A stretch of 64,000 nucleotides of DNA from the UHGV virus genome UHGV-1364441; one strand, 5' to 3'. This DNA is from a virus. A program made the position numbers and the translations under genes. Below are positions 4,694-49,137 of this stretch, one piece after another; the stretch's first letter is position 1; the number at the start of each line of letters is the position of its first letter. The notes beneath the pieces were generated by a model. It saw nothing but the letters and a program-made list of their open reading frames with translations. It did no database searches and was not told the DNA's origin.

Positions 4694-7600
4694 TTAATCC
4701 TCAAGCAGAGCATCCAGCGACGGGTCATTAATAGTTGTGCTAGCACGTGGTCGCGGTTGCGGCTGCGATGTTTTGACAACCTTATCCGGATCGCCTTTTG
4801 TATTGTTCTTGTTCACATTCAGAAGATCGTTCAGGATAGAGCAGATGTTATCCAGCGCCTTCAACATAGCAGGATCGTTATTTATAGTGTCAGTAGTTAA
4901 TGGTTGTCTTATTCCGCTTCGTGCGAGATCTGTTACAGTAGGAAGCTGTGGTGGCATAGCAAGAAAAGGTTCTTGCACAGCTGAAGCAGAGCCAAATATG
5001 GCGTTATTGGCACCAGTTGCTATTCCCCTAATGCTATTAGCGGTTTGTTGAATCCCCCCATTCAGCCAGTCTCCAACATTTCTTGTTAATGGGCTAATAG
5101 CTCGCGCAATCGCACTATTCTGTCCAGTAGACTGCATTACAAGATCGTTCAATATCCCTGTACTATCAATCCCCCCAACAAGTCGTGAAAGGTTATCGCC
5201 AACGGCAGGAATTACTGCGGTTCCTGTCTGTTTAAGCCCTGACACCGTGGAATCAAATAGCGAACCAAAGAAGCTCTTATCCTCACCTGTAACCACCTTG
5301 TAGCCGTTGTCATAAATCTGCACATCACTTGGTGCCGTGATAGTTCGTTTTCCAGAGGTAACTACTGGCGCAGCTCCCGCCATAGCCTGGTTGATTGCTA
5401 GAGCCTGCTCCTGCTGTGGAGTTTTCGGTGCTGGCGCTGCAGACGAAAAGCCCTCCATAGCCTGGCTGATTGCCAGAGCCTGCTCCTGCTGTGGAGTTTT
5501 CGGAGTAGAAGGGGATACTTGATCTCCCGGAAGTAGATCAATGATTTCTGTATCGTGATTAACAGTGCGTTTTTGTTGTATGGCTGTTGCGATATCAGCC
5601 ACTTGAGAAGCTTTTTTAAATCCAAAAGATTTACCGGTTAAGCCGGATATCTTTTCAGTAAGAGCCTGATCCATTCCTTTCGCTTTTTCGGAAAGCGAAG
5701 ATATAGAACCAAACGAAGTAGCTAACGCAAAATCCTTTCCCAGGTCCAGACTTGTTCCAGCAAGGCTGGTAGCCGCGCCGCCAAATAAATTACTTGCACC
5801 ACTGATTCCGCTTTCATTTATTGTGATTAACCGCTCAAGCAAACTCGATGGAAAGCCGGTATTAACATCAGCGTTCTCTGGATTAATCGGTTGTGGTTGG
5901 TTACCTGTTTTTTGTGGCTTTTTGGCGGCCTGGGCATGTTGTGCAACTTCAATTGGCTTAGGTGTTGCTGTTGGAACTGCATTCAATACAGGTTGTGCTG
6001 GAGATGTACCATCAGCATATTTCACCTTGCGACCAACGCTATATTGCGAATCACGAGCAATTAGTTGACCACCATTCTCTTGCTGAATTTTATTAAGCCG
6101 CGCCAATGTTTCATCGGAGAACCGCCCTTCCCAACGACCAGTATTTGCGTTGAATGCCCCAAGAGCATTCTTTATGAACTCATTGTTAACCGCCGGGTTT
6201 CCACCTTCTTTCGTCGCTATTGCACGAACTAATTGCGTCATAACCTCTGGGTTGCTGACGTCTATTTTTTCATTAGGCGAGACGCCAAGATATTTACTGA
6301 CGTTATCAATATATTGATTGGTATTGTTCTCATTTGGCGGCGCCCATTTGGAAATGATGCTTGATACCGTCTGTAACTTCTGATGTCCTGCTGCGGCACT
6401 GGTGCCGTTGTAATAGCTTGACACTTGGTTTGCCAACGCCCTGATCCCTTCTTCAGGTGTGTTAAATCGCGCAAAACGTTGTTCACCTTTTGCATTTGGC
6501 GATTCCAGCGTCGCCCCTTCCTGGTTGGCAAAAACAAGATTGCCGAGATTATTATTTCGGTAATTGCGGTTTTTAGCGTTGCTGCCGCCAATATTCAGAT
6601 CCGCTGCAATGGTGTTGTTGGCAGGTGCACTAAATTCTGTTGGAGAAGTATACCCGTGCTCACCAACTCCATCCTCGCCATTACGCCCACCTTGTAATTG
6701 TTCACCAAGAGAATGAATCGCATCGACAGTTTTTTTTGTGCCGTCTTCAACAGCTTTTTTTACTTGTTTCGTGTTTTCGTCAGTGGATAAAAATGTATCC
6801 TTAAGGTTACCAAAAACAGATTTGGTGATATCTACCGCGCCGTTAACACCACGAGCAATATCTCCGGTATCAAAATTCTGAAGTTTTTCACCTGCTCTTT
6901 CAAATCCTAGCGCAGAAATTCCTTTCCCTATCAAGTTCGTTGCGCCCGACACCAAGCCCCCCATATCGAGCACATTAGCTGTTGCGTAAGCCGTTTTTTG
7001 CTGTTCGGATACAGCATCATCGTCACTTAATCCAAAGGCTGCCTTTTGCGCATCTGTATCAGTGTAACCATCTATAGCGTCATATCCCGCCATAGCCAGC
7101 GATCCGATGATCGGGATAGCTCTTGCAGCTGTAGAAGCAGCTGATTTAACACCTATTTTTGCAGCACTTTTGAGGGCTACGGATTCGGTTTTTTTCTTTG
7201 CAACAGTTTCACCTGTTTTAATTGTGGCCTCTTCGGCAACAACACCTGCTGGCTTAACTGCCTTTGCTGTGTTTTTTGTTTCTTTAGCAATACCCTTAGA
7301 TGCGTCGCTTGTGGTGCTGATGTCTTTGGCTTTACTAACCTTTGTTTTAACAGTCTTTGCAGCTCCGGCACCAGCTCCAGCAGCAGCGGTTCCGGCAGCG
7401 GCTTTTTCACCAACAGAAAGGGCTTTTTTCCCCAGATTGCGACCTTTCCTTTTCGGTTTGTTCCGTTTATTTTTACCAGCCTGATCGCCAATATTGATTT
7501 TATTTCTTCTGCTTGCTCGATTTCTCCAGAGATCACTTAAGCCGAACTTATTCCCAGAAGATACTGATTTGCGTAGCTTAACTACTTCGTCGGAGACATT

Positions 7601-8638
7601 TTCCAGACCATCAATTATTTTGTTGTCATTGGTCTGAAGAATTTTTGTTTGCTCTTCTACTGCTTGTGCTGATTTTGTCTCAACAGCATTATTAAATGCT
7701 GTTGCAGAGGTTGCTTTTTGAGTATTCACCACCGCCGGATAAGTGATAGCTGGTGATGTCGCTTTCGAAGATAAAGCCTCACCTTTCCCCTTTTCTACCC
7801 ATTCTTTAAGAGATTCTGCTTTACCTGTGATCTCTTTAGTAATGTCGTACATGCCGCGAGCAGCCATCCACAACGGACCACCAGCGCCGACACCTGCGGC
7901 ATCTGTTAAAGACTCTTCACTGGAAGACTGATTGCCATCTACCCCTATAATGGAGCCTAATTTCCGGAGGAAGCCTTCTTGTAGTTTGGCGTCGGCCTTA
8001 CGTGCGTTCTGCCATTCTTTTTTTCTGGCTATATCTTCGTTGTTTTTCTGGGATACAAAGCGTCCATTACTATCCCGAAGCGGTCCTTTTTGGCTTTGGG
8101 GGGATTGTGGTTCAAGAGGAGCAGAATTAGCGGCTACTGGCACAGAACCTTTCAACTTTTGGGCGGACTGGCGTGATGACGCAAAATGAACGCGCTCTGA
8201 TGTGTTGGTTGCAACAATGAGACGTTCTTCTCCGTTGTTGACCTGCGTCCTCCCTTTTTTCATCGGAAGGCGTTTTATATATGGGTTAGCTTGGGTATTC
8301 TTGGCATCACCAGAGACATAGGGTTCGCTTGCTATGCGTCTACGGGATAGTCTTTGACTTACTTTACCTTGATTTTCACCAAGTTGAGTTATAGACCCTC
8401 TATCAGAGAGAATGGCGTTTTTGATCTCAGCAAGAGCCTTAAGTTCGTTTGTGCTCGCCCCCTGTATAGCGTCAATTATTGCGATACGGTCTTTATTCTC
8501 TTTCAAAATAACCTCTCTTTTGCCAGCGCGATCAACGTTTCCCGGCTTGAGCTTTGTATTTTTCTTCCAGGGCTTTTGACATATGGAGTGCTCGCCATTG
8601 CGGTAATTGTTCAACGTCGCTAACGGGCTGATATCCAT
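4694..8638 (-). CDS. large tail protein (tape-measure / P1 Sit-like by size and position)
   Basis: 1314-aa ORF, Ala/Gly/Lys-rich with internal duplicated segment (QALAISQAMEGF...QALAINQAMAGA), upstream of baseplate genes; I could not confirm a lytic transglycosylase motif. Confidence 0.55.
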   Translation of the reverse strand: MDISPLATLNNYRNGEHSICQKPWKKNTKLKPGNVDRAGKREVILKENKDRIAIIDAIQGASTNELKALAEIKNAILSDRGSITQLGENQGKVSQRLSRRRIASEPYVSGDAKNTQANPYIKRLPMKKGRTQVNNGEERLIVATNTSERVHFASSRQSAQKLKGSVPVAANSAPLEPQSPQSQKGPLRDSNGRFVSQKNNEDIARKKEWQNARKADAKLQEGFLRKLGSIIGVDGNQSSSEESLTDAAGVGAGGPLWMAARGMYDITKEITGKAESLKEWVEKGKGEALSSKATSPAITYPAVVNTQKATSATAFNNAVETKSAQAVEEQTKILQTNDNKIIDGLENVSDEVVKLRKSVSSGNKFGLSDLWRNRASRRNKINIGDQAGKNKRNKPKRKGRNLGKKALSVGEKAAAGTAAAGAGAGAAKTVKTKVSKAKDISTTSDASKGIAKETKNTAKAVKPAGVVAEEATIKTGETVAKKKTESVALKSAAKIGVKSAASTAARAIPIIGSLAMAGYDAIDGYTDTDAQKAAFGLSDDDAVSEQQKTAYATANVLDMGGLVSGATNLIGKGISALGFERAGEKLQNFDTGDIARGVNGAVDITKSVFGNLKDTFLSTDENTKQVKKAVEDGTKKTVDAIHSLGEQLQGGRNGEDGVGEHGYTSPTEFSAPANNTIAADLNIGGSNAKNRNYRNNNLGNLVFANQEGATLESPNAKGEQRFARFNTPEEGIRALANQVSSYYNGTSAAAGHQKLQTVSSIISKWAPPNENNTNQYIDNVSKYLGVSPNEKIDVSNPEVMTQLVRAIATKEGGNPAVNNEFIKNALGAFNANTGRWEGRFSDETLARLNKIQQENGGQLIARDSQYSVGRKVKYADGTSPAQPVLNAVPTATPKPIEVAQHAQAAKKPQKTGNQPQPINPENADVNTGFPSSLLERLITINESGISGASNLFGGAATSLAGTSLDLGKDFALATSFGSISSLSEKAKGMDQALTEKISGLTGKSFGFKKASQVADIATAIQQKRTVNHDTEIIDLLPGDQVSPSTPKTPQQEQALAISQAMEGFSSAAPAPKTPQQEQALAINQAMAGAAPVVTSGKRTITAPSDVQIYDNGYKVVTGEDKSFFGSLFDSTVSGLKQTGTAVIPAVGDNLSRLVGGIDSTGILNDLVMQSTGQNSAIARAISPLTRNVGDWLNGGIQQTANSIRGIATGANNAIFGSASAVQEPFLAMPPQLPTVTDLARSGIRQPLTTDTINNDPAMLKALDNICSILNDLLNVNKNNTKGDPDKVVKTSQPQPRPRASTTINDPSLDALLED

Positions 8639-8652
8639 ATAGAGTCAGGTTG

Positions 8653-9474
8653 TTAATAATGGTTAGCCATCCATTCAGATCTAATTGATGGGATAAACTC
8701 TCTATTGAGAAAGGGGACGTACAGTGTGGTTGTCACATCTGCACCCTCCTTAGCGTTTTTGCAATGTTGCGGAGGCAGGATCAGTCGGCTTGTGCCTCTC
8801 TCAATAGACATTTTCAGGCCGTGGCGTAGGTCTTTTTGCATAAGCTGTATGCGAGCCACAAGCGGAGTAAATTCGGTTTCAAGCGCCATGCTTTCAATGA
8901 TGTCAAAGCGTCGGTTAGCGGCCTGCGTGAAGTCCTCCGGATCGTCTTCAAGCGCCGTGCATAAAGCGAGTTCAGCAATTCGCATCCGTGCCACGCCAGC
9001 ACTGTATTCGGGGCTTTTCATATCAGGAAGTGACGCTCGCATTCGTTCAAGGAGTTCCGCGCCTTTCCCGGTTAATGGTTTAAGTATCCAGTCAGTTGGT
9101 ACTCCATTTACTGGTACGTTGGTTTTCACGTAAGGAGGTACAGTGAGTATTTCTACTGTTTGGGCCAGGTCGCTCAGGTTAATATCTGCATGATGCGTAT
9201 TACCGCAGTGACTGCACTCATAGGAGTAGGTCATTACTGCATCGGGGCGCGAATTAACAAATATCCACCAAAGAGCAGTTCTGCGATCCTGAACTGTCCA
9301 GTTAGCACTGTCGTTAATTTCACCATCCTGCATAGAGTTAAGGTACTCTGTAGTAGTAGCCTCATCTTCTGCCGGGTTCAGGTCAGAATATTTCAGCGCA
9401 TCCTTCACGGTAGGTGCGTGGAACTGAATTTCTGTCTCAGGACGGGAAGGCAATGGGAATTTTGGAATGTTCAA
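8653..9474 (-). CDS. hypothetical tail-associated protein
   Basis: 273-aa ORF heading the minus-strand tail operon; contains CSHCGNTHH Cys/His cluster. Confidence 0.45.
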   Translation of the reverse strand: MNIPKFPLPSRPETEIQFHAPTVKDALKYSDLNPAEDEATTTEYLNSMQDGEINDSANWTVQDRRTALWWIFVNSRPDAVMTYSYECSHCGNTHHADINLSDLAQTVEILTVPPYVKTNVPVNGVPTDWILKPLTGKGAELLERMRASLPDMKSPEYSAGVARMRIAELALCTALEDDPEDFTQAANRRFDIIESMALETEFTPLVARIQLMQKDLRHGLKMSIERGTSRLILPPQHCKNAKEGADVTTTLYVPFLNREFIPSIRSEWMANHY

Positions 9475-9569
9475 TTATTCCTCCGAAAAGCAGGTATCTG
9501 TTCATTTTCCAGAGGATAGGGAGTGTGTGATTTGCGATGGGGATTGAATGAAGATCTTTGCCGGTCGAG

Positions 9570-9839
9570 AAGCGATTATTGAGGGTGATTTTTACACCTT
9601 AAGTGACGCTACTCACATATCCACAGAGTATTTTTATAAACCTTTTTCCATTTTTAATCCTTTTTAGATCCTTTTTAGGCGTCGCTGGAGCCAGTAGTGG
9701 CGCGGGCTGTAGAGGAGGCTGGTGTAAGATTTGCCCTCAATTAAATACGATCGGTGTAAGATTTGCCCTCAAAAGGTGTAAGATTTGCCCTCAAAAGGTG
9801 TAGTAATTGCCCTCAAAGTGATGTAAAAATTGCCCTCAC
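9570..9839. repeat. iteron array upstream of rep gene (one inverted copy at 9570-9589, five direct ~20-bp copies at 9721-9839)
   Basis: ggtgtaagatttgccctcaa x3, ggtgtagtaattgccctcaa, gatgtaaaaattgccctcac; shares the ATTTGCCCTCA core I recall from F plasmid ori2 iterons. Confidence 0.8.
9611..9700. promoter_or_regulatory. origin-proximal AT-rich region with DnaA-box-like sequence (ATATCCACAG)
   Basis: catatccacagagtatttttataaacctttttccatttttaatcc; lies between an inverted iteron copy and the direct iteron array. Confidence 0.4.
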
Positions 9840-9862
9840 CATTTGAAGGATCACACAGGGTT

Positions 9863-10618
9863 ATGAACAGAGCGGAATTAACAGCAAAAGCCGTCAGCCT
9901 GATTGAGTCAGCGACACCTATTAGTCGTAGTTTGGCACAAGCCAATGAGATCACGGAGGCTGCTTATCACCTGACTCGCGACCAAAAGCGACTGTTGTTT
10001 ATTGTGGTGGGAAGACTTCGCTATGCTTCTAAGGATGGCGTTCTTGGTTCAGGTGCCTGTGAGTTGACGGTCAACGAATATGCAGAGATGTATAATTTGC
10101 CCTCTGCTGAAGCCAGCAAGGATATTCGTAAGGCCATTTCAGGGCTTAGCGAGAAGAAAGTTACGATATATAACCCTGATGAATCGACCGAATCAGAAGA
10201 CAGTTATGAGTCTTATCCTTGGATGATTAAGGATGCCTATTCACCACGGCGCGGGACTTACATTATTCATCTTAATCCATATCTCATGCCGTTTTTTACT
10301 CTGCTTGATAAGAGATTCACAAGGCTGAATTTTACCGAAGTATCTCGCCTTACAAATCCTTATTCTATGCGGCTTTATGAGTCCTTATGCCAGTACAGGA
10401 AGGATGATGGAAGCGGCTTTGCCATACTTGGCGTCGAATGGATGCGGGAGCGTTATGGGTTACCAAAAAGCTATCAGCGGTATGCCGAATTTAAGAGAAG
10501 TTTTTTAACGAAGGCTGTAGCAGAGATTGAAAAAAATACAAAAATGAAAATAGTCTTCTCAGAGGTGACGGAAGGCGGCAAAGTTACCAGGATAAAATTT
10601 ACCTATCAGCAGTCTTAA
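9863..10618 (+). CDS. repE: RepE/RepA-family (Rep_3) iteron-binding replication initiator
   Basis: Protein aligns along most of its length with F plasmid RepE as I recall it (TEAAY.L.RDQKR, AEASKDIR, YESxPW.IK, NPY.MRLYESLCQYRK.DGSG, LP.SYQR); start taken at MNRAEL (ORF track starts 9830). Confidence 0.9.
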   Translation: MNRAELTAKAVSLIESATPISRSLAQANEITEAAYHLTRDQKRLLFIVVGRLRYASKDGVLGSGACELTVNEYAEMYNLPSAEASKDIRKAISGLSEKKVTIYNPDESTESEDSYESYPWMIKDAYSPRRGTYIIHLNPYLMPFFTLLDKRFTRLNFTEVSRLTNPYSMRLYESLCQYRKDDGSGFAILGVEWMRERYGLPKSYQRYAEFKRSFLTKAVAEIEKNTKMKIVFSEVTEGGKVTRIKFTYQQS

Positions 10619-10912
10619 GGGCAATTTTTACACCCCTCTCAAGGTGTAGAATTTGCCCTTAACGATCGGCAATTGAGGGCAATTTTTACATCTTAATTGC
10701 ATGTATCTTGTTATTAGCAAGTTGTGTTTTTATATAACGTATTGATATGTAAGGACTATGTAAAAATCGCCCTCAACCAATATCGTGCGTATCGTGCATT
10801 CTTATTGCGCTTTTTTATTATCATTCACTGTGTTAACTGATTGATATTATTGAAATGTGTAAAGAATGCCTTCATTACAGATGAATTGATGATGTAAAAA
10901 ATGCCCTCAAAA
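10617..10912. repeat. downstream iteron cluster (inc-like), mixed orientation, interspersed with AT-rich DNA
   Basis: Copies at ~10617 (inverted), 10643, 10674 (inverted), 10759, 10893 of the same GTGTAnnAATTGCCCTCAA family. Confidence 0.7.
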
Positions 10913-10999
10913 TTGCGCTACCTTCCCTACCCGCTATCGTTGAGGGCGTGGGTGCTGACGGGAAATGAGCAACCCTCCAGCACACATAATTAAAGCTAT

Positions 11000-11707
11000 T
11001 CAGAATTTGATCACTCCACTCACAGCCCCCTTTAACGCACTTGTAGCCATGCCAGCGGCACCGTTGACCAAAGCAGAAACACCTGAGCCTGCGGATGTGT
11101 ATTTCTGGAAAGTGATTGGGTATGACAAGAACTCTGACACCTGATCACGTGAGCGTGTGATTTCCCCAAGTTGCGTAGGAAATACGCGCATTTCTTCTTC
11201 CAGTTCTTTTCCGCCGTCCTGAGTCACCCGGTAGACACGGATTTTCATCAGATATTCAGGAGGAAGGTTTATTGTTCCATCAGGATTTGTTACACGAGAA
11301 CGACGCTCTTTGAACCAGTCCATGATCTTGCCATCTTCGGTATCCCTCACGGTCATAGTGACCGGTCCGGCGCTAACATAGGTTGGCTTGCTGAATTCTA
11401 CGCTGCCGATCACCTTGCTTTCTGTCTCAATGTTTCCACTGCTGTAGGTGATATCCTTCACGAACATATCGAAGCCGTTCAGGCCATCCACTTCAACGGT
11501 CCACTGCCACCCCTGGGCGTAACGGATACGCATAGCGGCAGCAACAATATTTTTCCCGTAGGCAATATCGCTACTGTAATTCCCGCTTACCCCGCCGCCT
11601 GATATGGCTTTATCAAGAATGTCGCTAATGAGGTTGCTGGTGAATGATTTCGTGTTAAATGACAATGCGGTGGTCAACGTTCTACCAACGCTGCTGAAAA
11701 TACTCAC
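11000..11707 (-). CDS. hypothetical structural protein
   Basis: 235-aa ORF at the 3' end of a colinear minus-strand structural operon. Confidence 0.45.
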   Translation of the reverse strand: MSIFSSVGRTLTTALSFNTKSFTSNLISDILDKAISGGGVSGNYSSDIAYGKNIVAAAMRIRYAQGWQWTVEVDGLNGFDMFVKDITYSSGNIETESKVIGSVEFSKPTYVSAGPVTMTVRDTEDGKIMDWFKERRSRVTNPDGTINLPPEYLMKIRVYRVTQDGGKELEEEMRVFPTQLGEITRSRDQVSEFLSYPITFQKYTSAGSGVSALVNGAAGMATSALKGAVSGVIKF

Positions 11708-18095: not shown

Positions 18096-18220
18096 GGTTA
18101 AGCCCTAAATTCGGGCGCGGCGTGAAGGTTCTTTTGACGCGCTAACAATACCAACTTTGTGATTTAGTCAATAGCATTAGTAAAATAAAATCTGTTAACA
18201 CACGTGTTGTTATGTGGTTT

Positions 18221-20987: not shown

Positions 20988-21157
20988 TTGTTCTCAAATT
21001 GTTCTCAAATTGTTCTCACTTCTATCCAAGTGCCCAGCAGGCGATTAAAGATATTCTCAAAACAACCTCAATTATGACTCTTATTTATCTCTAATTATGT
21101 GGATTTTCGATGCCTTCTCTTTTAAAATCATGATTTGATTCTCAAATGTGTCTCAGA
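20988..21157. repeat. parC-like centromere: three tandem 11-bp repeats (ttgttctcaaa) plus dispersed TTCTCAAA copies upstream of parM
   Basis: ttgttctcaaattgttctcaaattgttctcact at 20988-21020; further copies at ~21053 and ~21136 overlapping the parM promoter. Confidence 0.65.
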
Positions 21158-21171
21158 AGTGGAGCAAGAAG

Positions 21172-22128
21172 ATGCGCATTTTTATCGACGATGGTTCAAC
21201 AAATATCAAAATGCTGTGGGAACACGACGGGGAAACTCGCACGCACATCAGCCCTAACAGCTTTAAGCGCGGATGGTCAGCAACATTTGGTGCTGGCAAG
21301 ACATTTAACTATGTCATTGACGACGAAAAGTATTCGTATGATTTGATCTCGCCAGATGTTCTGCCGACGAATAACGTTGAATGGCAATACAGCCCGCTTA
21401 ACGTCCTGGCTGTTCACCACGCCCTGCTGACAAGTGGCATTGAGCCGCAGGAAGTAGAAATTGTGGTTACGCTGCCACTGGCGGAGTTTTACGACGACGA
21501 CGCGCAATACAATCTCGATAACATCGAGCGCAAGAAAGCCAGCCTTATGCGCCCCGTCACGCTGAATAAAGGCAATGTATTCACGATTAAGAAAGTCACG
21601 GTACGCCCGGAGTCTATTCCGGCAGGAATTGGCCTGTGCGACAATCTGACCCCTGCCCACTCTGTTCTTATCGTCGATTTGGGTGGAACTACCCTTGATG
21701 TTTCAATGGTCGCCGGGCAAATGACGGCAGTTTCCCGTGTTTTTGGCGATTCGAATCTTGGCGTCTCTCTGGTTACCAGGGAAGTAAGGCAAGCACTTGC
21801 CAGAGCCAATACCGAAACGTCAAATTACAATGTCGATCAGCTCATTATTAACCGCCACGATGAAGATTATCTGAACGACAATATCAATGACCCATCAGCT
21901 ATTGGTGATGTGAAAAAGGCCATTGCTGCAAGTATTGACCGTCTGCGTACCCGCGTTCTTGATGTGATTGGCGATTTTAAAGGATATACGCATGTCATGG
22001 TGATCGGTGGCGGCGCACCGCTGGTGGCTGATGCAATTCGCGAGCAAGTTAATATTCGCGATGACCGTTTCTTCGTGGCGGATGACCCGCAACTTGCTCT
22101 TGTTCATGGCCTGAAAGCAATCGGTTAA
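21172..22128 (+). CDS. parM: ParM/StbA actin-like plasmid segregation ATPase
   Basis: MRIFIDDGSTNIK..., HISPNSFK, ERKKA, PESIPAG, DLGGTTLD, YTHVMVIGGGA align with R1 ParM as I recall it; start at MRIF with GGAG RBS (ORF track starts 21148). Confidence 0.9.
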   Translation: MRIFIDDGSTNIKMLWEHDGETRTHISPNSFKRGWSATFGAGKTFNYVIDDEKYSYDLISPDVLPTNNVEWQYSPLNVLAVHHALLTSGIEPQEVEIVVTLPLAEFYDDDAQYNLDNIERKKASLMRPVTLNKGNVFTIKKVTVRPESIPAGIGLCDNLTPAHSVLIVDLGGTTLDVSMVAGQMTAVSRVFGDSNLGVSLVTREVRQALARANTETSNYNVDQLIINRHDEDYLNDNINDPSAIGDVKKAIAASIDRLRTRVLDVIGDFKGYTHVMVIGGGAPLVADAIREQVNIRDDRFFVADDPQLALVHGLKAIG

Positions 22129-22140
22129 CGAGGTATGTCC

Positions 22141-22479
22141 ATGTCTCAGGAACGTAAGAAAGTGATGATTTATCTTCGCCCAGGGGCTTATGCCAATGAA
22201 AAGGCGGCGAGCGAGAAGATAAAAAAACATAGCGATATGGCAAGAACTGCATTGTTGGCAGGGCTTGCGCTGGGAGAAGTCGATAGCAGGCTTCCTGGAT
22301 TACTGGCTTCCCTGCTGACCGAAGTCAATAACCCGGAGCAGATCCGAAAAATGCTGGCATCCTTCCTGGAATTACCTGCTGCTGTTGAGGAGCACCCTGC
22401 CGCCATTGAGCCAGCGAAGGAGCAAGTTGTTGCCAAAAGCGCGTCGGCGCGTAATCTTGCTGATTCTCTACCTGATTGA
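22141..22479 (+). CDS. parR: ParR-like centromere-binding protein
   Basis: Small gene immediately after parM; N-terminal region with ribbon-helix-helix-like pattern and ALLAGLAL segment resembling R1 ParR. Confidence 0.6.
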   Translation: MSQERKKVMIYLRPGAYANEKAASEKIKKHSDMARTALLAGLALGEVDSRLPGLLASLLTEVNNPEQIRKMLASFLELPAAVEEHPAAIEPAKEQVVAKSASARNLADSLPD

Positions 22480-22499
22480 TGGTCAAAACTCTATTTTAA

Positions 22500-22522
22500 G
22501 GCTGCAAATTGCAGCCTTTTTT
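22500..22522 (+). terminator. rho-independent terminator after parR
   Basis: ggctgca-aat-tgcagcc hairpin followed by tttttt. Confidence 0.7.
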
Positions 22523-22525
22523 GTT

Positions 22526-22740
22526 CCTTTTTGGTGTTAAAATGGCATCAAAGCGACACCAAATGGGAGTCGTTAATGTACTGGTGCATACTTGGTGCTA
22601 ATTTAGTGCTATTCAGGCGCAAAACGTGTACCAGTATCCATCGGATTTGATGTTATAGTTCCGGCATTAAGAATGGTGCTATTGCTGTACCGTTGATGTG
22701 TAAATGTGGTGCCGTTTTAGTGTAAAAATAGAGCCAAAAT
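22526..22740. repeat. array of degenerate TGGTGC / GGTACA hexamer-like boxes upstream of parA (putative second centromere/promoter)
   Basis: tttttggtgtta, gacaccaaa, tactggtgca, ttggtgcta, gtgtaccag, atggtgcta, gctgtaccg, tggtgccg; similar boxes recur at 23715-23800 and 19745-19830. Confidence 0.4.
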
Positions 22741-22751
22741 AAAGCCGAGGT

Positions 22752-23399
22752 ATGGACATGATTATCCTGGTAGCAAGTCAAAAGGGAGGCTGTGGCAAGT
22801 CAACCACCAGCGTCAATATTTGTGCCGAGCTGGCCCGAAAAAACAAAGATGTCGTCTTGATTGATGCTGATAAGCAGGGAACGGCAGCTCGATGGGCGTC
22901 AGACCGTAATTCGTCCGAAGTGACACCAGTTATTCATTGCGTCCAGAAGTTTGGAAATATTCGAGAAACTCTGCTCGATCTTAACAATCGATATGAATAC
23001 GTGGTTGTTGATACCGCAGGTCGTGATAGTAAAGAGATGCGCACAGGTATAACGGCGGCGGATATTCTATTGGTTCCATTCAGGCCGTCTCAGCCAGATT
23101 TGGACACGCTGGCACACTTTGTTGAGGTGTTTGAAGAGGCTTTGGATCTGATGCCTAATCCCAATATTAAGGCGTGCGCAGTCTTAACGATGGCCCCGTC
23201 AAATCCGGTTGTGAATGAAGCAAATGAGGCCAAAGAGTATCTGGCAGAATATCCGCAACTGAAATTGCTGAAAACCATTATTCGCGATCGCAAGGTTTAC
23301 CGCGACTGCATGGCTGAAGGAAAGGGTGTTGTTGAGATGGATAACGGTAAGGCGAAAGGTGAAATTCAGATGTTAGTTAAGGAGTTGCTAAGTGATTAA
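22752..23399 (+). CDS. parA: small ParA-family (type Ib) partition ATPase
   Basis: Deviant Walker A KGGCGKST, ~215 aa, followed by a small overlapping gene. Confidence 0.85.
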   Translation: MDMIILVASQKGGCGKSTTSVNICAELARKNKDVVLIDADKQGTAARWASDRNSSEVTPVIHCVQKFGNIRETLLDLNNRYEYVVVDTAGRDSKEMRTGITAADILLVPFRPSQPDLDTLAHFVEVFEEALDLMPNPNIKACAVLTMAPSNPVVNEANEAKEYLAEYPQLKLLKTIIRDRKVYRDCMAEGKGVVEMDNGKAKGEIQMLVKELLSD

Positions 23400-23676
23400 A
23401 CGTCGAGAACCAGCTAAAGCGCCTAAGGCTACTGATCCGGAACTTGAGCGAAGAATTGAAGAGTTCGCCAGCAAAGCGGATTTAATCCCGGATGAAATTA
23501 CAACGGGGAAGGTGCTTGATAAAGATGCGCCGCGCGACTTTAAATCCATACGCGTGAGCTTTAATGAATATGAGTACGGCGTACTCGATGATTTAAGCAA
23601 AAAACTGAACCGCAGCAAATTGAACTTGATTCGGCATGCAATCCTCATGTTAGCGGAGTCTGAGGAAGCAAAATAA
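23392..23676 (+). CDS. ParG-like small centromere-binding partner of ParA
   Basis: 94-aa gene, GTG start overlapping parA stop with AAGGAG RBS; basic N-terminus and C-terminal RHH-like segment (NLIRHAILMLAE). Confidence 0.5.
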   Translation: MIKRREPAKAPKATDPELERRIEEFASKADLIPDEITTGKVLDKDAPRDFKSIRVSFNEYEYGVLDDLSKKLNRSKLNLIRHAILMLAESEEAK

Positions 23677-23944: not shown

Positions 23945-25606
23945 ATGAGTGAGGCAGAAGCCCGCCCGACTAACTTTATTCGTCAGATCATCGATGAAGA
24001 TCTGGCAAGTGGTAAGCACACCACAGTACATACCCGTTTCCCGCCGGAACCGAATGGCTATCTGCATATTGGTCATGCGAAATCTATCTGCCTGAACTTC
24101 GGGATCGCCCAGGACTATAAAGGCCAGTGCAACCTGCGTTTCGACGACACTAACCCGGTAAAAGAAGATATCGAGTACGTCGAGTCGATTAAAAACGACG
24201 TTGAATGGTTAGGTTTTCACTGGTCTGGTAACGTCCGTTACTCCTCCGATTATTTTGATCAGCTCCACGCCTATGCTGTTGAACTGATCAACAAAGGCCT
24301 GGCGTATGTTGACGAACTGACGCCGGAACAGATCCGCGAATACCGCGGCACCCTGACGCAGCCGGGTAAAAACAGCCCGTACCGCGATCGCAGCGTTGAA
24401 GAGAACCTGGCGCTGTTCGAAAAAATGCGTGCCGGTGGTTTTGAAGAAGGTAAAGCCTGCCTGCGTGCGAAAATCGACATGGCGTCGCCGTTTATCGTGA
24501 TGCGCGATCCGGTGCTGTACCGCATTAAGTTTGCTGAACACCACCAGACTGGCAACAAGTGGTGCATCTACCCGATGTACGACTTCACCCACTGCATCAG
24601 CGATGCGCTGGAAGGTATTACGCACTCTCTGTGTACGCTTGAGTTCCAGGACAACCGTCGCCTGTACGACTGGGTGCTGGACAACATCACCATTCCTGTT
24701 CACCCGCGCCAGTACGAATTCTCGCGCCTGAATCTGGAATACACTGTGATGTCCAAGCGTAAGCTGAACCTGCTGGTGACCGACAAGCACGTTGAAGGCT
24801 GGGATGACCCGCGTATGCCGACCATTTCCGGTCTGCGTCGTCGTGGTTACACTGCGGCTTCTATTCGTGAGTTCTGCAAACGCATCGGCGTGACCAAGCA
24901 GGACAACACCATTGAGATGGCGTCGCTGGAATCCTGCATCCGTGAAGATCTCAACGAAAATGCGCCGCGCGCAATGGCGGTTATCGATCCGGTGAAACTG
25001 GTCATCGAAAACTATCAGGGAGAAGGCGAAATGGTCACCATGCCGAACCATCCAAACAAACCGGAAATGGGTAGCCGTCAGGTGCCGTTTAGCGGTGAGA
25101 TTTGGATCGACCGCGCCGATTTCCGAGAAGAAGCTAACAAGCAGTACAAACGTCTGGTGCTGGGTAAAGAAGTGCGTCTGCGTAATGCTTACGTCATTAA
25201 GGCTGAACGCGTGGAGAAAGATGCCGAAGGCAATATCACCACCATCTTCTGTACTTATGACGCCGACACCTTAAGCAAAGATCCGGCAGATGGTCGTAAA
25301 GTGAAAGGCGTTATTCACTGGGTGAGCGCGGCACATGCGCTGCCGGTTGAAATCCGCCTGTACGATCGTCTGTTCAGCGTGCCGAACCCAGGTGCTGCTG
25401 ATGATTTCCTGTCGGTGATTAACCCGGAATCGCTGGTGATCAAACAGGGTTTTGCTGAACCGTCGCTGAAAGAAGCGGTAGCGGGTAAAGCATTCCAGTT
25501 TGAGCGTGAAGGTTATTTCTGCCTCGACAGCCGCCATTCTACGGCGGAAAAACCGGTATTTAACCGCACCGTTGGGCTGCGTGATACCTGGGCGAAGTTA
25601 GGTTAA
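23945..25606 (+). CDS. glnS: glutaminyl-tRNA synthetase
   Basis: 553-aa protein with class I HIGH ([12 protein letters not shown]) and VMSKR motifs; matches enterobacterial GlnRS essentially end to end from memory; own promoter-like upstream region and terminator. Confidence 0.95.
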
Positions 25607-35164: not shown

Positions 35165-35381
35165 TGCTTTGGCGTTATGACTCCCTACCGCGCTTCGGCT
35201 GAAAGTTAATCGTCAAAAGAACCTTCAACGGGAGCCGTTAGCGCGATGGATTATGTGCAGTTTGTGATTTCCAGAATAGTGTCAACTACTTTTTTGTGGA
35301 TTTTTTATTTGCCTGAAATTTGGCCTAAATCATGTTGATGTAGCTTGTTGTTTTTATAACATAAAACTTCATTTTGTTTAC

Positions 35382-42412: not shown

Positions 42413-42428
42413 TGAGGTGGATCAAAAA

Positions 42429-43118
42429 ATGAAAGAACGCGGGATGATTTTTAACGATGAGATGGTCAGGGCCATCCTCGAAGGAGGGAAGACGCAGACT
42501 CGCCGACCTGTAAAAAATGTCAGGGCCGATAACTGCCTGGTTATCCGTAAACCGACAAAGAAACGCAATGGTGTCTATACCCACGTTATGGATGCACCTG
42601 AACATGGTTTATGCCCGTTCGGTAACGTTGGTGATCGCATATGGGTCCGTGAGGCGTGGGCGATATTAGGCAATGAGGATGGTTGCAGTGTGGACTGGAA
42701 CGACAACCTTTGTCGTGGCGATGAGAAGAACGCAGCAAGGATTTATCGGGCCAGTTGTGAGCAAAAGCCGGGTGATTACGGCTTGTGGTCGATACCCGAT
42801 GATGCCGACTGGAAACCTCACACTGTGAATGAAAAATTTGATGGCGGGTGGTGTCCATCAATTCACATGCCGCGCTGGGCATCGCGCATTCTTCTGGAAA
42901 TTACCAACGTGCGCGTTGAGCGGTTGAACGATATCAGCGAATGCGATGCAAGGGCTGAGGGCGCACCAACAGAATCGACCCTCATTGGCGATAAGCATTA
43001 CCCAAGTTTCCGTAGCCTATGGAAATCAATTTATGGCGAAGATAGTTGGAACGCTAATCCCTGGGTGTGGGTAATCGAGTTTAAGCGTATTCAGGGGGCA
43101 ACCAGTGAGCAAAATTAA
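42429..43118 (+). CDS. hypothetical prophage protein
   Basis: MKERGMIFNDEMVRAILEGGKTQTRRP N-terminus common in lambdoid prophage proteins; GAGGTGG RBS. Confidence 0.45.
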   Translation: MKERGMIFNDEMVRAILEGGKTQTRRPVKNVRADNCLVIRKPTKKRNGVYTHVMDAPEHGLCPFGNVGDRIWVREAWAILGNEDGCSVDWNDNLCRGDEKNAARIYRASCEQKPGDYGLWSIPDDADWKPHTVNEKFDGGWCPSIHMPRWASRILLEITNVRVERLNDISECDARAEGAPTESTLIGDKHYPSFRSLWKSIYGEDSWNANPWVWVIEFKRIQGATSEQN

Positions 43119-43803
43119 CTATCAAGAACTGCGCGAGGCGGCGGAACAGGCAACGCAAGATGAATGGGTAGCATATATTTTGCCGGGTCATAACGGCATT
43201 TATCCTGCGCGCACGTCTGAGGGTAGGCATTGCGGATACTTTATTGACTGGCCTGGCATTGATGGACAAAGGAATGCTGGTGCTAATGCCCGTTATATCG
43301 CGGCCATCCCACCAAAAGTTGCGCTGGCACTCCTGGGCGAAATTAAGCGCCTGGAGGACACAAATATTGATGCTATGTGCCGAATAGCACCGCTTGAGAC
43401 TAAGCTCGCGGCTCTGGTGGCAGAGAACGCCGGGCTGAAACTCGCAATGGCTGTAACTCTTGATCATGTGTCGGTCACGGATGCAGGGCAGGCCGGAGTT
43501 GCTGCAATGATTATCAACGATGCTCTGCACCACAGCGAAACCCCAGCCACCGATGCTTTTCTGGCTGAAGGGAAGACTGAAGCACGCAAGGAAGGCGCTT
43601 ATTTTGTGGCGAACAGAATGTTGGCAGCCTGGAAAGCTGGTTTTATTGATGATACTGCGAAGAACGCTGCGGATATTGCCCGGATGATCCTTACCTCTAC
43701 TGAGTTTATGACTAATGCGCCGGAAAGCCATTTTGATCGCTCATTCTCTGATGGCGTTCTCGAAGATATCGCCGAACAGCTTCGTAAAGGAGTCATCCAA
43801 TGA
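43105..43803 (+). CDS. Ea22-like protein, paralog
   Basis: GTG start; shares SKI(N/D)YQ.LREAAE N-terminus and [10 protein letters not shown] block with neighbours. Confidence 0.5.
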   Translation: MSKINYQELREAAEQATQDEWVAYILPGHNGIYPARTSEGRHCGYFIDWPGIDGQRNAGANARYIAAIPPKVALALLGEIKRLEDTNIDAMCRIAPLETKLAALVAENAGLKLAMAVTLDHVSVTDAGQAGVAAMIINDALHHSETPATDAFLAEGKTEARKEGAYFVANRMLAAWKAGFIDDTAKNAADIARMILTSTEFMTNAPESHFDRSFSDGVLEDIAEQLRKGVIQ

Positions 43804-44303
43804 GCAAGATTGACTATCAGGCACTGCGTGAGGCGGCAGAGAAAGCAACGTGGGGAGACTGGGACTCATATAAACCACACCGTGGCGCACGTGGTTATGA
43901 GGTCCGACTAAGTAGTCAGGCCATCGCGCAACACGTTCTGAAAAACAACGCTGAATTTATTGCTGCCTTTAATCCAAAGATTGCATTGGCACTACTGGAT
44001 GAACGGGAAAGGAACCAGCAATACATCAAATCCCGCGACCAGGAGAACGAGGATATTGCGCTAACGGTAGGGAAGCTGCGCGAGAAGCTGGAAGCCGCAG
44101 AGAAGCGCATTGCAGAGTTAGAAAGTGGTTCTCAGGCACAAAAGTTAGTTGAAGCAATCATTGTTGCGATAGAAAACGAACAGGAAAGGCTTTTTGATGA
44201 AGATTACCTAATGGATTCGAAAGAATGCATTGACGTAATTCGTGAAGAAGTAAAGCGATGGAATGATTCCCGTGCCGCTGGCATTCGCATCAAAGGAGAG
44301 TGA
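43800..44303 (+). CDS. Ea22-like protein, paralog
   Basis: MSKIDYQALREAAEKAT... N-terminus near-identical in pattern to 43105 gene; coiled-coil. Confidence 0.5.
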   Translation: MSKIDYQALREAAEKATWGDWDSYKPHRGARGYEVRLSSQAIAQHVLKNNAEFIAAFNPKIALALLDERERNQQYIKSRDQENEDIALTVGKLREKLEAAEKRIAELESGSQAQKLVEAIIVAIENEQERLFDEDYLMDSKECIDVIREEVKRWNDSRAAGIRIKGE

Positions 44304-44304
44304 T

Positions 44305-44499
44305 ATGGCAACCAACAACCGTAAAGCAAAGATTCTGTTAGTTCGTAGAAACGCTCCTGGCGTCTGGCAGTGGGTGAGACTCAGCAACCGACGGATGGGG
44401 TTGATGAAATATTACGGGATGATGGATTGTGGTTTTTGCAAAAAGCCCAGCGCGGCGCAAAACCGCTGGAAAAACCATTTGCGCACTAAAGGAGAGTGA
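44305..44499 (+). CDS. hypothetical small basic protein
   Basis: MATNNRKAK...; preceded by aaaggagagtgatATGgc cassette. Confidence 0.35.
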   Translation: MATNNRKAKILLVRRNAPGVWQWVRLSNRRMGLMKYYGMMDCGFCKKPSAAQNRWKNHLRTKGE

Positions 44500-44500
44500 T

Positions 44501-44710
44501 ATGGCTATTGCCGCAAGTTACACCATGCATCTCTATTGTGACTGCCGCCAGTGTACGGAAGGTGTATATCCAGTGCCAGACTTCGGTGAATATATCGGTA
44601 CGTCATGGGCTGGCTGTGCAAAAGAGGCACGTAAGGATGGCTGGCGAATAAGCAAAGACAAAACACGTGCTTTTGCGCCCGGGCATAAAGTTTTGAGGAT
44701 TAACAAATGA
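44501..44710 (+). CDS. hypothetical small Cys-rich protein
   Basis: MAIAASYTMHLYCDCRQCTEG...; preceded by the same 18-bp aaaggagagtgatatggc cassette. Confidence 0.35.
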   Translation: MAIAASYTMHLYCDCRQCTEGVYPVPDFGEYIGTSWAGCAKEARKDGWRISKDKTRAFAPGHKVLRINK

Positions 44711-45396
44711 CCACTTTAACCGACAAAGAACTGATTAAAGAAATCAAAGAGCGTATCAGCAGCCTGGACGTTCGAGACAATATTGAACGCCGGGCTTATG
44801 AAATTGCACTGGCATCGCTGGAAGCAGATCCAGTTGCTTATATTTTCAAACATCCGGCCGGGAAATTATTCTGGGCTTTAACGGATGAAAGCAATAAAGA
44901 GCAACCGGACGTTATTCCTGTTTATGCTGCCGCGCCTGCGTCGGTTGTGCCGGATAATGCATCAGAGCCTCTTGCTTATGCTTACAAAGAGCTTACGCCT
45001 GAGATTATGCGCAACCAGGCTGCCGAATCCAATCGCGGTAATGAGTGGACCGGCAATCCTGATATTGATAACGCCATCATCATGCTCGACCGCATAGATA
45101 CGCTGGAAAATTGCGATGATGACCGTATTGAGGCTGTTAAGGCTGTTTTGCGTAGACTGGCTGGCAACTCTCCGGTAACTCCGGATGGTTGGATAAGCTG
45201 TAGTGAGCGAATGCCGGATAGCAAAACAGCCGTTCTTGTTGCCAGGGAGTTTGACAGGAAAGGTGACTGGCGAATGAAATGGGCGACTTACATCCCGGGG
45301 CATCCTGACGCTAATGATGGGTGGATAATTCCAGGTGCGTCGTGGATACCATCACACTGGATGCCGCTACCAGAACCGCCGCAGGAGGCGAAATGA
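44707..45396 (+). CDS. DUF551-domain prophage protein
   Basis: C-terminal DGWISCSERMPD...WMPLPEPP pattern typical of DUF551. Confidence 0.5.
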   Translation: MTTLTDKELIKEIKERISSLDVRDNIERRAYEIALASLEADPVAYIFKHPAGKLFWALTDESNKEQPDVIPVYAAAPASVVPDNASEPLAYAYKELTPEIMRNQAAESNRGNEWTGNPDIDNAIIMLDRIDTLENCDDDRIEAVKAVLRRLAGNSPVTPDGWISCSERMPDSKTAVLVAREFDRKGDWRMKWATYIPGHPDANDGWIIPGASWIPSHWMPLPEPPQEAK

Positions 45397-45653
45397 TGGA
45401 TGTAAAAGAGAAGGTTTTGCAGGTGATGCGTTCCCGGGCTGCCCTGCAAGATAAAGCTCTCGGCGGGGAATATCCATTCAGGATGGCAACCTGGAATTTG
45501 CGGTTGGCAATGGAGAAGGAATTTCCTGATGAAGAATGGCGCTCGGCAGATTTGCGCAAAATTCTTATGGAGCTGGCTAAAGACGGAACAGTATCCAAAG
45601 ATACCCATGCCAGCCGGATTGGTCAGGCGGTATGGAGACTGGAGGTGAGGTAA
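45393..45653 (+). CDS. hypothetical small protein
   Basis: MMDVKEKVLQ... with GGAGG RBS (ORF track starts 45321). Confidence 0.4.
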   Translation: MMDVKEKVLQVMRSRAALQDKALGGEYPFRMATWNLRLAMEKEFPDEEWRSADLRKILMELAKDGTVSKDTHASRIGQAVWRLEVR

Positions 45654-45934
45654 TGGCTAACCTGCAACTTGCCGTCAAAGGTGAATACTTCGATGACATG
45701 ATTCGCGGGGAGAAAACGGAAGAGTATCGCCTGTGTAATGGCTACTGGAATAAGCGAATCATGTTCCGGGAATATGACCGCCTGATTATCACAAAGGGAT
45801 ATCCGAAGCGCGACGATTCCAGTCGCAGAATAGACGTCCCGTATAACGGATATGAAATCAAGACAATCACACATCCGCACTTCGGTGATAAACCGGTAAA
45901 GGTGTACGCGATAAAGGTGAATATCAATGGCTAA
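45653..45934 (+). CDS. hypothetical small protein
   Basis: MANLQLAVKGEYFDDMIRGEKTEEYR...; RBS GGTGAGG. Confidence 0.4.
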   Translation: MANLQLAVKGEYFDDMIRGEKTEEYRLCNGYWNKRIMFREYDRLIITKGYPKRDDSSRRIDVPYNGYEIKTITHPHFGDKPVKVYAIKVNING

Positions 45935-46379
45935 ATTTCAAAGAGCTATTATTTTTCTGGCTATGTTATCAGCCAGTCATTTATCCCACGCGTCAGTTAT
46001 TGCCGCTGGAGCGGCGGCAACAGCGGCGGCAACAGCGGCGGCAACAGCAGCGGCAACAGCAGCGACCACGGCGGCAGTAAATGCTTCTATCGCCAGCGAG
46101 CAAGCGCGGCGTGCTGCAACCAATGCTTCCGCAAACACCACCACGGTATCAGTCACACAATCAAAACCGAATATAGGCTTTGTTACTTGCGGAAAGAGGA
46201 ATAGCGAAATGGTTGGTTCTCTTGGTTGTGTAATGTGGCAAGAGGACGATAGACCTGAAATCCCGTGGAACTCATGGCCTGGTTACATTCTTGGTAAGAA
46301 GATACCCACCAGCTATGAAGTAAATGCTATTTCATTCGACCAATATAACGGTGTTGCAACGGTGTATTTTCTGTATTAA
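45927..46379 (+). CDS. secreted protein with Ala/Thr repeat tract
   Basis: Signal peptide then AAATAAATAAATAAATAATTAA encoded by tandem 9-bp gcggcggca/acagcggcg repeats. Confidence 0.5.
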   Translation: MAKFQRAIIFLAMLSASHLSHASVIAAGAAATAAATAAATAAATAATTAAVNASIASEQARRAATNASANTTTVSVTQSKPNIGFVTCGKRNSEMVGSLGCVMWQEDDRPEIPWNSWPGYILGKKIPTSYEVNAISFDQYNGVATVYFLY

Positions 46380-46391
46380 CACGGAGTAATT

Positions 46392-46685
46392 ATGTGGCGT
46401 GGTAATAGTCATGGCAGAAGCCAGATGATACTTACCGAATATACGTTAGACCACAAAACCAATAAATCACGCTCAGTATATTTGCTTCGGCACAATAGCC
46501 GCGTAAGGAATACCGTGCTGGAGCAAAATCTGACCGTTGAAATGGATAATTTTGGGAACTTCAAGCCAACAATAGCGCTTGATGATTTTCCGCGTGGTTT
46601 AAGCGAAAGAGAAGCAATGCTTAAATTAGCAGAATGGCTACAGAGATTAAGTATTGCTATTGAAGATAACTGGAGCAATCCGTAA
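46392..46685 (+). CDS. hypothetical protein
   Basis: 97-aa ORF. Confidence 0.4.
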   Translation: MWRGNSHGRSQMILTEYTLDHKTNKSRSVYLLRHNSRVRNTVLEQNLTVEMDNFGNFKPTIALDDFPRGLSEREAMLKLAEWLQRLSIAIEDNWSNP

Positions 46686-46925
46686 TGAAAAATAAAAAGT
46701 TTTGGTCTACGTTTTTATTTGTCTGTGTTTGTGGCTTTTTTGTTGCTTTAGCTGGTGGCGTAGAATGGGGAACGGAGAACTGCGGCGTAATGGTTGGTGA
46801 CACCTTATTACTCGCGGGCATGTTAGCTTTTATTCGTTCATGAGAAAGATTCAAACCACCAGCAATATTATTACCCCTGTCGTTACGGCAGGGGGCTGCA
46901 ACACTGTGTAATTGAGTAATTTTAT

Positions 46926-47300
46926 ATGATGACATTCAAACATTTTCTTGACCGTCCATTATGGGCGGCAGCCGCAGGCTATGACTTTAATTATATGGAT
47001 TGCATGTCTTATACCGCCAATGCATACGACCATTCCTTCAGTCTGCTGTTTAATTCTTTAAGAATATTGCCGCAAACAGAAGTTGGAGAGCTTCATTTAT
47101 GGCTATTGGGCTTTATCGCGGCTGGAGTTGGTATTGCTGTATGGCCTTTTATTTTCTGGCTGGTGGCTGTTGTAGTGTGGTTTAAGTGCAAGGCATACCG
47201 GAATAAGTATTTCTTAGGTGATGGAATGACTGATATTGCCAAAAGGAACATTGAAAATTGGACCAAAGAATGCGAAAAGAAATGGAGCAACAAGAAATGA
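46926..47300 (+). CDS. membrane protein
   Basis: Hydrophobic stretch LWLLGFIAAGVGIAVWPFIFWLVAVVVWF. Confidence 0.45.
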   Translation: MMTFKHFLDRPLWAAAAGYDFNYMDCMSYTANAYDHSFSLLFNSLRILPQTEVGELHLWLLGFIAAGVGIAVWPFIFWLVAVVVWFKCKAYRNKYFLGDGMTDIAKRNIENWTKECEKKWSNKK

Positions 47301-48013: not shown

Positions 48014-48052
48014 TCACCATGCTAAAATCCCCTCAATTCACAGAGGGGATTT

Positions 48053-48325
48053 TTGTATATGTTGCATAGAGTTTTATGGAAAAGCGTTATTGTCGGCGCG
48101 ATCTTGGCTATGTCTGGGTGTGCTATGGTGCAATACAATGACGGAGAAAAGGTTAGCATCCAGTCAGATGGTTGGTATGGCCTGGATAGCCTGCAAAAAA
48201 CAGCGGATAAAGCCTGCCAGCAATACGGAAAGTCTAAAGCCGTATATCAGCATAGTGCTAACGCTAATCCTCATCTTGCGCCCGGAACAGGCGTTCAGAA
48301 TACCATCTGGAAATGTGAGCCTTAA
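48053..48325 (+). CDS. lipoprotein
   Basis: Signal peptide with lipobox (AILAMSGC). Confidence 0.5.
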
Positions 48326-48327
48326 AT

Positions 48328-49092: not shown

Positions 49093-49137
49093 GGCGCATA
49101 AAGAAGCCCGCCAGACCAGGCGGGCTTTTTGTTGATA

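Follow-up and report, generated by a model that had tools for sequence, protein, structure and literature searches.

What type of replicon is carried by the virus genome UHGV-1364441, and is it an F-type (RepFIA) unit set in a P1-like phage backbone, as the initial annotation of this DNA proposed? The question is raised by an initiator gene, rep, and by the short repeats (iterons) on either side of it, which together occupy positions 9580-10909 of the 64,000-nucleotide stretch analysed here (the window). Iterons, an AT-rich block and a DnaA box beside rep are the layout of Rep_3 iteron replicons, and the bounds first given for the locus (9570-10912) accurately bracket its outermost iterons. 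The segment is very probably the plasmid-prophage maintenance replicon of a D6-type (P1 subgroup 2) phage-plasmid, that is, an iteron-controlled theta replicon whose initiator falls in the sister clade of F RepE. Judged by its sequence, the replicon of Rep is a sister type of that of F RepE and not a RepFIA/IncFIA replicon.

The window is collinear with Escherichia phage D6 from D6 position 36363 to 91159 and on to 10326, at about 85-98% identity, and so belongs with the D6-like elements; D6 is a known P1-like phage-plasmid (PMC7969092). The 1.5-kb replicon DNA is 99.6% identical to D6 (NC_050154.1, 45453-46974) and 100% identical to the E. coli plasmid NZ_CP150992.1, and it is present in 111 PLSDB plasmids, mostly of about 90 kb and non-mobilizable, from Escherichia, Salmonella and Shigella. 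Rep is 100% identical to the D6 orf42 protein, and D6 shows the same slot, with rep between homologues of pmgB and tub. In the window, the left flank is the pmgB homologue (8653-9474, minus strand; D6 orf41), 40% identical to P1 PmgB, and the right flank is the tail tube (tub) homologue (11000-11707, minus strand; D6 orf43), 51% identical to P1 Tub. The P1-like backbone recognised at the outset is confirmed by these flanks and by the collinearity with D6. The further statement that the replicon sits between tail and structural genes, where P1 has different genes, is right as to the flanks but not as to P1, where just 14 bp separate pmgB from tub and nothing is thus carried at this site. No difference of substance separates the replicon of the window from that of D6 and of D6-like plasmid prophages such as pYU39_89. 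By this near-identity, the replicon at 9580-10909 is the catalogued plasmid-maintenance origin of the P1-related phage-plasmid D6. For D6, both rep and the iterons have been annotated and published before, and a 'repB associated with iteron sequences' has been reported for a D6-like plasmid (PMC6799933); according to a recent preprint, D6 rep is absent from common replicon-typing databases and tools (bioRxiv 10.1101/2025.09.12.675607). The novelty is therefore limited to a modest refinement, which consists of the assignment to a sister clade of RepE, a design without an operator and a cassette seen in several slots. D6-like phage-plasmids occur widely among pathogenic E. coli, Shigella and Salmonella, and the significance of the refinement is mainly one of bookkeeping.

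The gene rep (9863-10618, plus strand) encodes a 251-aa Rep_3 initiator, assigned by its domains, by alignments and by a tree. Taken against the family reference (Pfam PF01051/PF21205), it has the two winged-helix domains (WH1 and WH2), with matches to Rep3_N at 2.9e-29 (102.7 bits, cutoff 22.4) and to Rep3_C at 9e-16 (58.3 bits, cutoff 21.1). The nearest characterised relative is F RepE, likewise a two-winged-helix initiator of 251 aa, which is 50% identical to Rep, with 68% positives, over 228 aa (E 2e-86); RepE entries are also the top matches of Rep among solved structures (about 1e-73). Similarity to P1 RepA is not significant (BLASTP E 0.057), and the original description of the initiator as RepE-like rather than P1 RepA-like thus holds.

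The same comparison bears on the idea that the locus is a P1 RepA-type (IncY) replicon that has merely been relocated. The D6 record annotates its rep gene with the remark 'similar to P1 gene repA?', and P1 and the window both have iteron replicons with repeats on either side of rep, a promoter that probably lies within the origin iterons and a rep start close to these iterons. P1, p0111 and the window also share a role, namely that of a low-copy iteron replicon keeping a P1-type prophage as a plasmid. Besides the lack of significant similarity between the initiators, however, the NCBIfam RepE model matches Rep while no NCBIfam model matches P1 RepA. The slots differ as well, as the P1 replicon adjoins its partition genes, with parA on one side and upfA on the other, whereas that of the window lies between pmgB and tub, with its partition genes unlinked. 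With neither a P1-homologous initiator nor the parA-upfA location, a relocated IncY replicon is extremely improbable. Assignment to the PlasmidFinder type 'p0111' was also considered and rejected, as Rep has no significant similarity to the p0111 Rep of pO111_2 (E 0.027).

How close, then, is the replicon to that of F? A true RepFIA (IncFIA) replicon, newly captured from a conjugative F plasmid and thus incompatible with F, would account for F RepE being the closest characterised relative and for the iteron half TTGCCCTCA and the ori2-like layout common to both. Against it, the proteins are only 50% identical, and DNA similarity between the window and F is limited to a single 203-bp stretch at 66%. 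The best NCBIfam model for Rep is the RepE equivalog NF010305, but the score of 280.6 bits is below the cutoff of 342, compared with 537.8 for F RepE; a score under the cutoff would account for the generic label 'RepB family'. MOB-suite types the replicon as rep_cluster_1704, not IncFIA. Identities to Rep in PLSDB fall into separate groups, at 95% or above (108 records), 60-80% (a single record, which was not recovered in searches aimed at it), about 50% (thousands of RepE genes) and about 31% (other Rep_3 proteins). A neighbour-joining tree with its root on proteins 30-35% identical to Rep joins Rep and its rare relatives in one clade, which is sister to the clade of F RepE and all RepE-named proteins, so that no sequence of RepE proper falls on the side of Rep.

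The protein also combines features that are common to both clades with features of its own. The contacts of RepE with single-stranded DNA of the unwinding element have been described, and N22, F146 and Y172 were shown to be essential (PMC10602881); 7 of the 11 contact residues are kept in Rep (N22, R47, L142, R145, F146, Q171 and Y172), including all three essential ones. The WH1 segment SAEASKDIR is near-invariant in both the Rep and the RepE clades, which parallels the invariant TTGCCCTCA half of the iteron. In the WH2 helix, where RepE R205-R207 are required for duplex binding (PMC10602881), RRR of RepE becomes KRS in Rep and only the middle arginine is invariant, a change that parallels the altered left iteron half described below. 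At the position of RepE R118, Rep has D. The substitution R118P renders RepE monomeric.

The iterons were sought over the whole window with the pattern RTGTARNNNTTGCCCTCA, allowing up to two mismatches, and the expectation was obtained from shuffles. The pattern occurs 14 times, against 0.52 expected, and 13 of the 14 matches lie within 9580-10909; likewise, all six exact copies of TTGCCCTCA in the window fall inside 9400-11100. Upstream of rep, five direct 19-bp iterons on the plus strand (9721-9739, 9753-9771, 9775-9793, 9797-9815 and 9820-9838) follow the consensus RGTGTARnnnTTGCCCTCA, with start-to-start spacings of 32, 22, 22 and 23 bp. An inverted iteron-like site, GGTGTAAAAATCACCCTCA, lies further to the left of the origin (9580-9598, minus strand). 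Inside rep, the plus-strand site GATGTATAATTTGCCCTCT (10087-10105) encodes EMYNLPS and is kept in four of six clade members, namely the window, L007 (6230-6248), L011 (8227-8245) and L012 (8218-8236), whereas F repE shows no more than a weaker trace of it, ATTGACCTCTG, at the corresponding position. The members that keep the site share a TTG Leu codon (CTG in one of them) and a CCC Pro codon, and both TTG for Leu and CCC for Pro are minor codons in E. coli. These shared codons hint at selection on the DNA itself as a putative Rep-binding site.

That the iterons have their core in common with those of F ori2, as claimed from the start, is correct for TTGCCCTCA, but the exact 11-mer ATTTGCCCTCA, found three times in the window, is absent from F ori2; F instead holds AATTGCCCTCA, of which the window too has three copies. 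When the F iteron TGTGACAAATTGCCCTCAG is set against the (A/G)TGTA(A/G)nnnTTGCCCTCA iteron of the window clade, only the right-hand 9 bp are in common. The left half reads TGTGACAA in F and RTGTAR in the window, where it also lies 1 bp nearer to the shared TTGCCCTCA core. Both the different left half and the closer half-sites speak against a RepFIA replicon, and the signature (A/G)TGTA(A/G)nnnTTGCCCTCA can serve as a simple marker for replicons of the RepE sister clade.

The origin itself follows a plan that is recognisable from F. In F, oriS comprises DnaA boxes, an AT-rich 13-mer region, four iterons, repE and five incC iterons (PMC13028717). The window and F share the order of a DnaA box, an AT-rich element with T-tracts, direct 19-bp iterons, rep and downstream iterons, although F has two DnaA boxes and four origin iterons where the window has one clear box and five iterons. 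The box of the window, ATATCCACA (9617-9625, plus strand), matches TTATCCACA at eight of nine positions and, in the alignment with F ori2, corresponds to the second of the two boxes there. It is followed by the candidate unwinding element (9626-9680, plus strand), delimited by its composition (78% A+T) and by alignment with F ori2, in which five T5 tracts start at 9631, 9643, 9651, 9661 and 9672 and a GATC lies at 9667; TATTTTTATAA and TTTTTAGATC of this element are common to F ori2. A G+C-rich spacer (9681-9720, plus strand) ending in ..GTAGAGGAGG then leads to the iterons, and its position is conserved in the clade and in F. Indeed, the window, F ori2 and five clade members all have, in this order, one or more DnaA boxes, TATTTTTATAA, T5 tracts, a spacer ending in ..AGAGGAG, four to six iterons and rep. 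An Rfam search of 9300-11100 found nothing.

A marked departure from F is found between the last origin iteron and rep. In F, the repE operator lies between the origin iterons and repE and is bound by RepE dimers. This segment of about 45 bp, with its inverted 8-bp half-iterons (TGTGACAA..TTGTCACA), has no counterpart in the window or in any clade member, where its lack is a further argument against a RepFIA replicon. In the window, about 25 nt separate the last iteron from the start of rep, and this iteron (9820-9838) holds TGTAAAAAT, an extended -10-like motif, at a position homologous to a -10 that was placed, by sequence inspection, inside the F operator half-site. From the missing operator and the presence of TGTAAAAAT in the last iteron, we tentatively infer a rep promoter buried in the last iterons and repressed by iteron-bound Rep, as for P1 repA.

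Downstream of rep, six iterons in mixed orientation form a cluster (10616-10909) that resembles F incC. They comprise an iteron overlapping the rep stop codon (10616-10634, minus strand), followed by iterons at 10643-10661 (plus), 10674-10692 (minus), 10757-10775 (plus), 10856-10874 (plus, weak) and 10891-10909 (plus), all from the pattern scan. The DNA of the cluster is A+T-rich and contains two matches to the IHF consensus. The first iteron of F incC begins within a few bp after the repE stop, and the window has its inverted iteron at the rep stop itself, so that the ori2-repE-incC order, with control iterons starting from the rep stop, is also found here; an inverted iteron at, or at most about 12 nt from, the rep stop is conserved in the five closest clade members. 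In the window, the first two iterons make up a near-perfect 20-bp inverted repeat (10616-10661), 90% complementary and with an 8-nt spacer, which starts at the rep stop and might be bound by dimeric Rep or else serve as a barrier or terminator at the end of rep. F is further distinguished by its linked sopABC, while the window replicon is phage-borne and has no linked sopABC, another feature at odds with a RepFIA unit.

Taken together, the layout of the locus and the biochemistry of F RepE, from which the individual steps are extrapolated, suggest how the replicon would work. Host DnaA would bind the box at 9617-9625 and Rep monomers the five direct iterons at 9721-9838, with one winged-helix domain reading the TTGCCCTCA half and the other the clade-specific RTGTAR half. 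The T-tract unwinding element (9626-9680) would then melt, and Rep would grip the T-rich strand through the residues conserved from RepE while the host helicase is loaded. Autorepression would most likely be exerted by Rep on the last iterons over the embedded promoter, as in P1 repA, because rep starts so close to the last iteron and an F-type operator is absent. The downstream cluster (10616-10909) would act like F incC, through Rep titration and handcuffing of the origin, and by this analogy it most likely limits copy number, which would be low. Stable inheritance would depend on phd/doc, a Cre-like recombinase and the ParM and ParA partition systems, which lie at a distance of about 10-12 kb.

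Several points weigh against this account. Autonomous replication by the segment and binding of Rep to the iterons are predictions from sequence, and the control role of the downstream cluster is drawn by analogy. The incC repeats found in F are all inverted with respect to those of ori2, whereas the downstream repeats of the window are in mixed orientation. A scan for sigma-70 consensus promoters upstream of rep found none, which bears on the step of promoter and autoregulation. Finally, the assignment of WH1 and WH2 to the iteron halves is one that we take to follow from the RepE-iteron and RepE-operator structures.

In another explanation, the replicon is decayed or redundant, the prophage is maintained by another origin and the repeats persist only as binding sites with some other regulatory role. 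The conserved iteron-like site within rep and the outlying sites indeed hint at roles beyond origin firing. Nevertheless, the open reading frame of rep is intact, the protein is identical in D6 and the window and has the same RefSeq accession in both plasmid records inspected, and the essential RepE residues are retained. The whole origin architecture is conserved in relatives whose Rep is 55-78% identical, and D6 has no further plasmid-type initiator annotated, as Rep is the only one apart from the lytic RepL. Decay is thus very improbable, and an active maintenance replicon of the D6 type remains the preferred interpretation.

The F-type reading also carried a prediction, namely incompatibility with F-family plasmids. 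This is not indicated. In the one verified co-residence, strain CUVET16-559 has, besides a plasmid with the 100% identical replicon, the plasmid pCUVET16-559.1, whose RepE is identical to that of F and has the same protein accession, and which has four incC-type repeats, namely those that the scan also finds in F. The D6-type replicon thus appears to tolerate F RepE and F-type iterons when they are present in one cell. No inference is drawn in the reverse direction, that is, on the effect on the F-like plasmid, because pCUVET16-559.1 also carries FII and FIB replicons. In ori2 of this clinical multireplicon plasmid (L020, 13006-14332), a 54-bp deletion has left two of the four iterons. With this co-residence added to the separate clade, the model score, the MOB-suite cluster, the left iteron half, the missing operator and the unlinked sopABC, the RepFIA alternative is largely refuted, and we regard it as very improbable; the initial designation of the locus as an F-type replicon is accordingly abandoned in favour of a D6-type replicon of the RepE sister clade. 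Placement in this clade predicts compatibility with IncY and p0111 plasmids, and probably with IncFIA plasmids.

A second apparent co-residence with an IncFIA plasmid, in ETEC6335, was rejected as a typing artefact, as the plasmid that MOB-suite labels 'IncFIA' has, over its whole length, IncFII and IncX1 replicons and no repE. On the PLSDB record NZ_CP122592.1 (L058-L060), the MOB-suite label 'IncFIA' corresponds to no repE gene, with just an IncFII RepA and an IncX1-type Rep annotated, and PLSDB 'IncFIA' labels thus need checking before they are taken as evidence of a RepE replicon.

Where else does this type of replicon occur? A search of 5.8 billion proteins returned rare relatives of Rep at 78, 71, 63, 60, 57 and 55% identity, and a scan of IMG/VR gave only near-identical D6-like contigs and one 34% match. 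Three of the relatives are on metagenomic P1/D6-like contigs. In L007 (Rep 71%), a P1-related genome with capsid and sheath proteins 77% and 74% identical to those of P1, rep occupies the slot that repA/par has in P1, with the upfB side on one flank and gene 23 on the other; in L013 (55%) it lies between homologues of ddrA and ddrB, and in L005 (78%) near homologues of ulx and darB. Two further relatives, Nissabacter CP028040.1 (L011, 57%) and a JGI contig (L012, 63%), have ordinary plasmid backbones. The Rep clade thus occupies at least four different slots of P1/D6-like backbones, as well as non-phage plasmids. Relatives with a Rep of 55-78% identity have the full origin architecture, (A/G)TGTA(A/G)nnnTTGCCCTCA iterons and no operator, and in the more divergent L013 the iteron is correspondingly different.

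These comparisons allow the initial suggestion of modular replicon exchange to be refined. The window shares nucleotide homology with L005 or L007 only within 9610-10630, a segment that runs from the DnaA box as far as the first downstream iteron, and P1, p0111-type and D6-type elements have three initiators with no detectable mutual similarity. Together with the several slots, this supports modular replicon replacement; what does not stand is a recent exchange with conjugative F, of which there is no sign at the nucleotide level. Because the proteins are 50% identical and DNA similarity is restricted to the 203-bp stretch, the exchange with the F lineage is, as measured by this divergence, ancient. 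A Rep clade shared among several P1-like slots is a concrete case of replicon shuffling between plasmids and phage-plasmids, the general idea of which is already established.

The gap between pmgB and the replicon contains a candidate D6-type late promoter of the pmgB-sit unit, AAATCACACA-N5-TATCCT (9513-9533, minus strand), which is a neighbour of the replicon and not a part of it. The motif AAATCACA(A/C)A-N5-YATNNT (AAATCACAMA-N5-YATNNT) has four exact matches in the window, against 0.17 expected, all on the minus strand (1975-1995, 9513-9533, 18145-18165 and 35250-35270), and each precedes a late-type unit (tail-fibre R/S, pmgB-sit, major capsid gene or mat). The Lpa-dependent late promoters of P1 have the same architecture but a different -22 box, and no P1-type late promoter boxes were found upstream of pmgB; the equivalent promoter of P1 lies upstream of pmgC, whereas the copy of the window lies between pmgB and the replicon. 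From its sequence and positions, the motif is probably the D6-type late promoter.

A more far-reaching scenario, which we put forward as tentative and rather doubtful, would combine this promoter with the exchange of replicons. The unit of about 1 kb comprising the DnaA box, the unwinding element, the iterons and rep would be a portable cassette of an unnamed RepE sister clade, operator-less and self-regulated through its iterons as in P1, and planted independently in at least four P1/D6-like slots. In D6 it would split a late structural unit, which has its own late promoter at 9513-9533, and late transcripts that enter the origin from tub, in antisense orientation to rep, could switch off plasmid replication in lytic growth.

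The partition functions that serve the same plasmid state are unlinked to rep and lie at 21148-23676, in a region corresponding to D6 orf58-61. They consist of a ParM-type ATPase (21148-22128; Pfam StbA_N 4.2e-69, ParM_N 5.8e-55) with a small partner reading frame (22135-22479), and a small ParA-type ATPase (22752-23399; Pfam AAA_31/CbiA/ParA) with an adjoining reading frame (23392-23676), all on the plus strand. In P1 subgroup 2 (D6-like), 14 persistent genes separate the replication from the partition genes (PMC7969092).

Outside the replicon, the window differs from D6 in a diverged sit gene and in several accessory blocks. The sit homologue (tape-measure/transglycosylase, 4694-8638) is 75-93% identical to D6 per 250 bp across 5750-8500, while the region from 8500 to about 15750, with pmgB, the replicon, tub and tail genes, is 97-100% identical, which suggests a mosaic replacement inside sit. 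An unusual conservation of the replicon relative to D6 was considered and rejected, as everything from pmgB through the sheath gene is at 97-100% and sit alone is diverged. The regions 42414-48607 and 49084-50249 have no megablast match to D6 and thus represent variable accessory regions; the reading frames scanned in these blocks include two Ead/Ea22-like proteins and one DUF551 protein, and several have no Pfam match, among them one of 461 aa (49138-50523, minus strand). Four tRNA genes are predicted at 60324-61518, Met(cat), Ser(tga), Thr(tgt) and Arg(tct), whereas the D6 record has Ser, Thr and Asn tRNAs at the collinear place and the ARAGORN strand is opposite to the D6 annotation; by these predictions and annotations, the tRNA set differs between the window and D6, although they are close relatives. 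Finally, a reading frame of 553 aa (23945-25606), which adjoins the partition genes, is collinear with D6 orf62, annotated as a glutaminyl-tRNA synthetase, an unusual cargo for a phage-plasmid.

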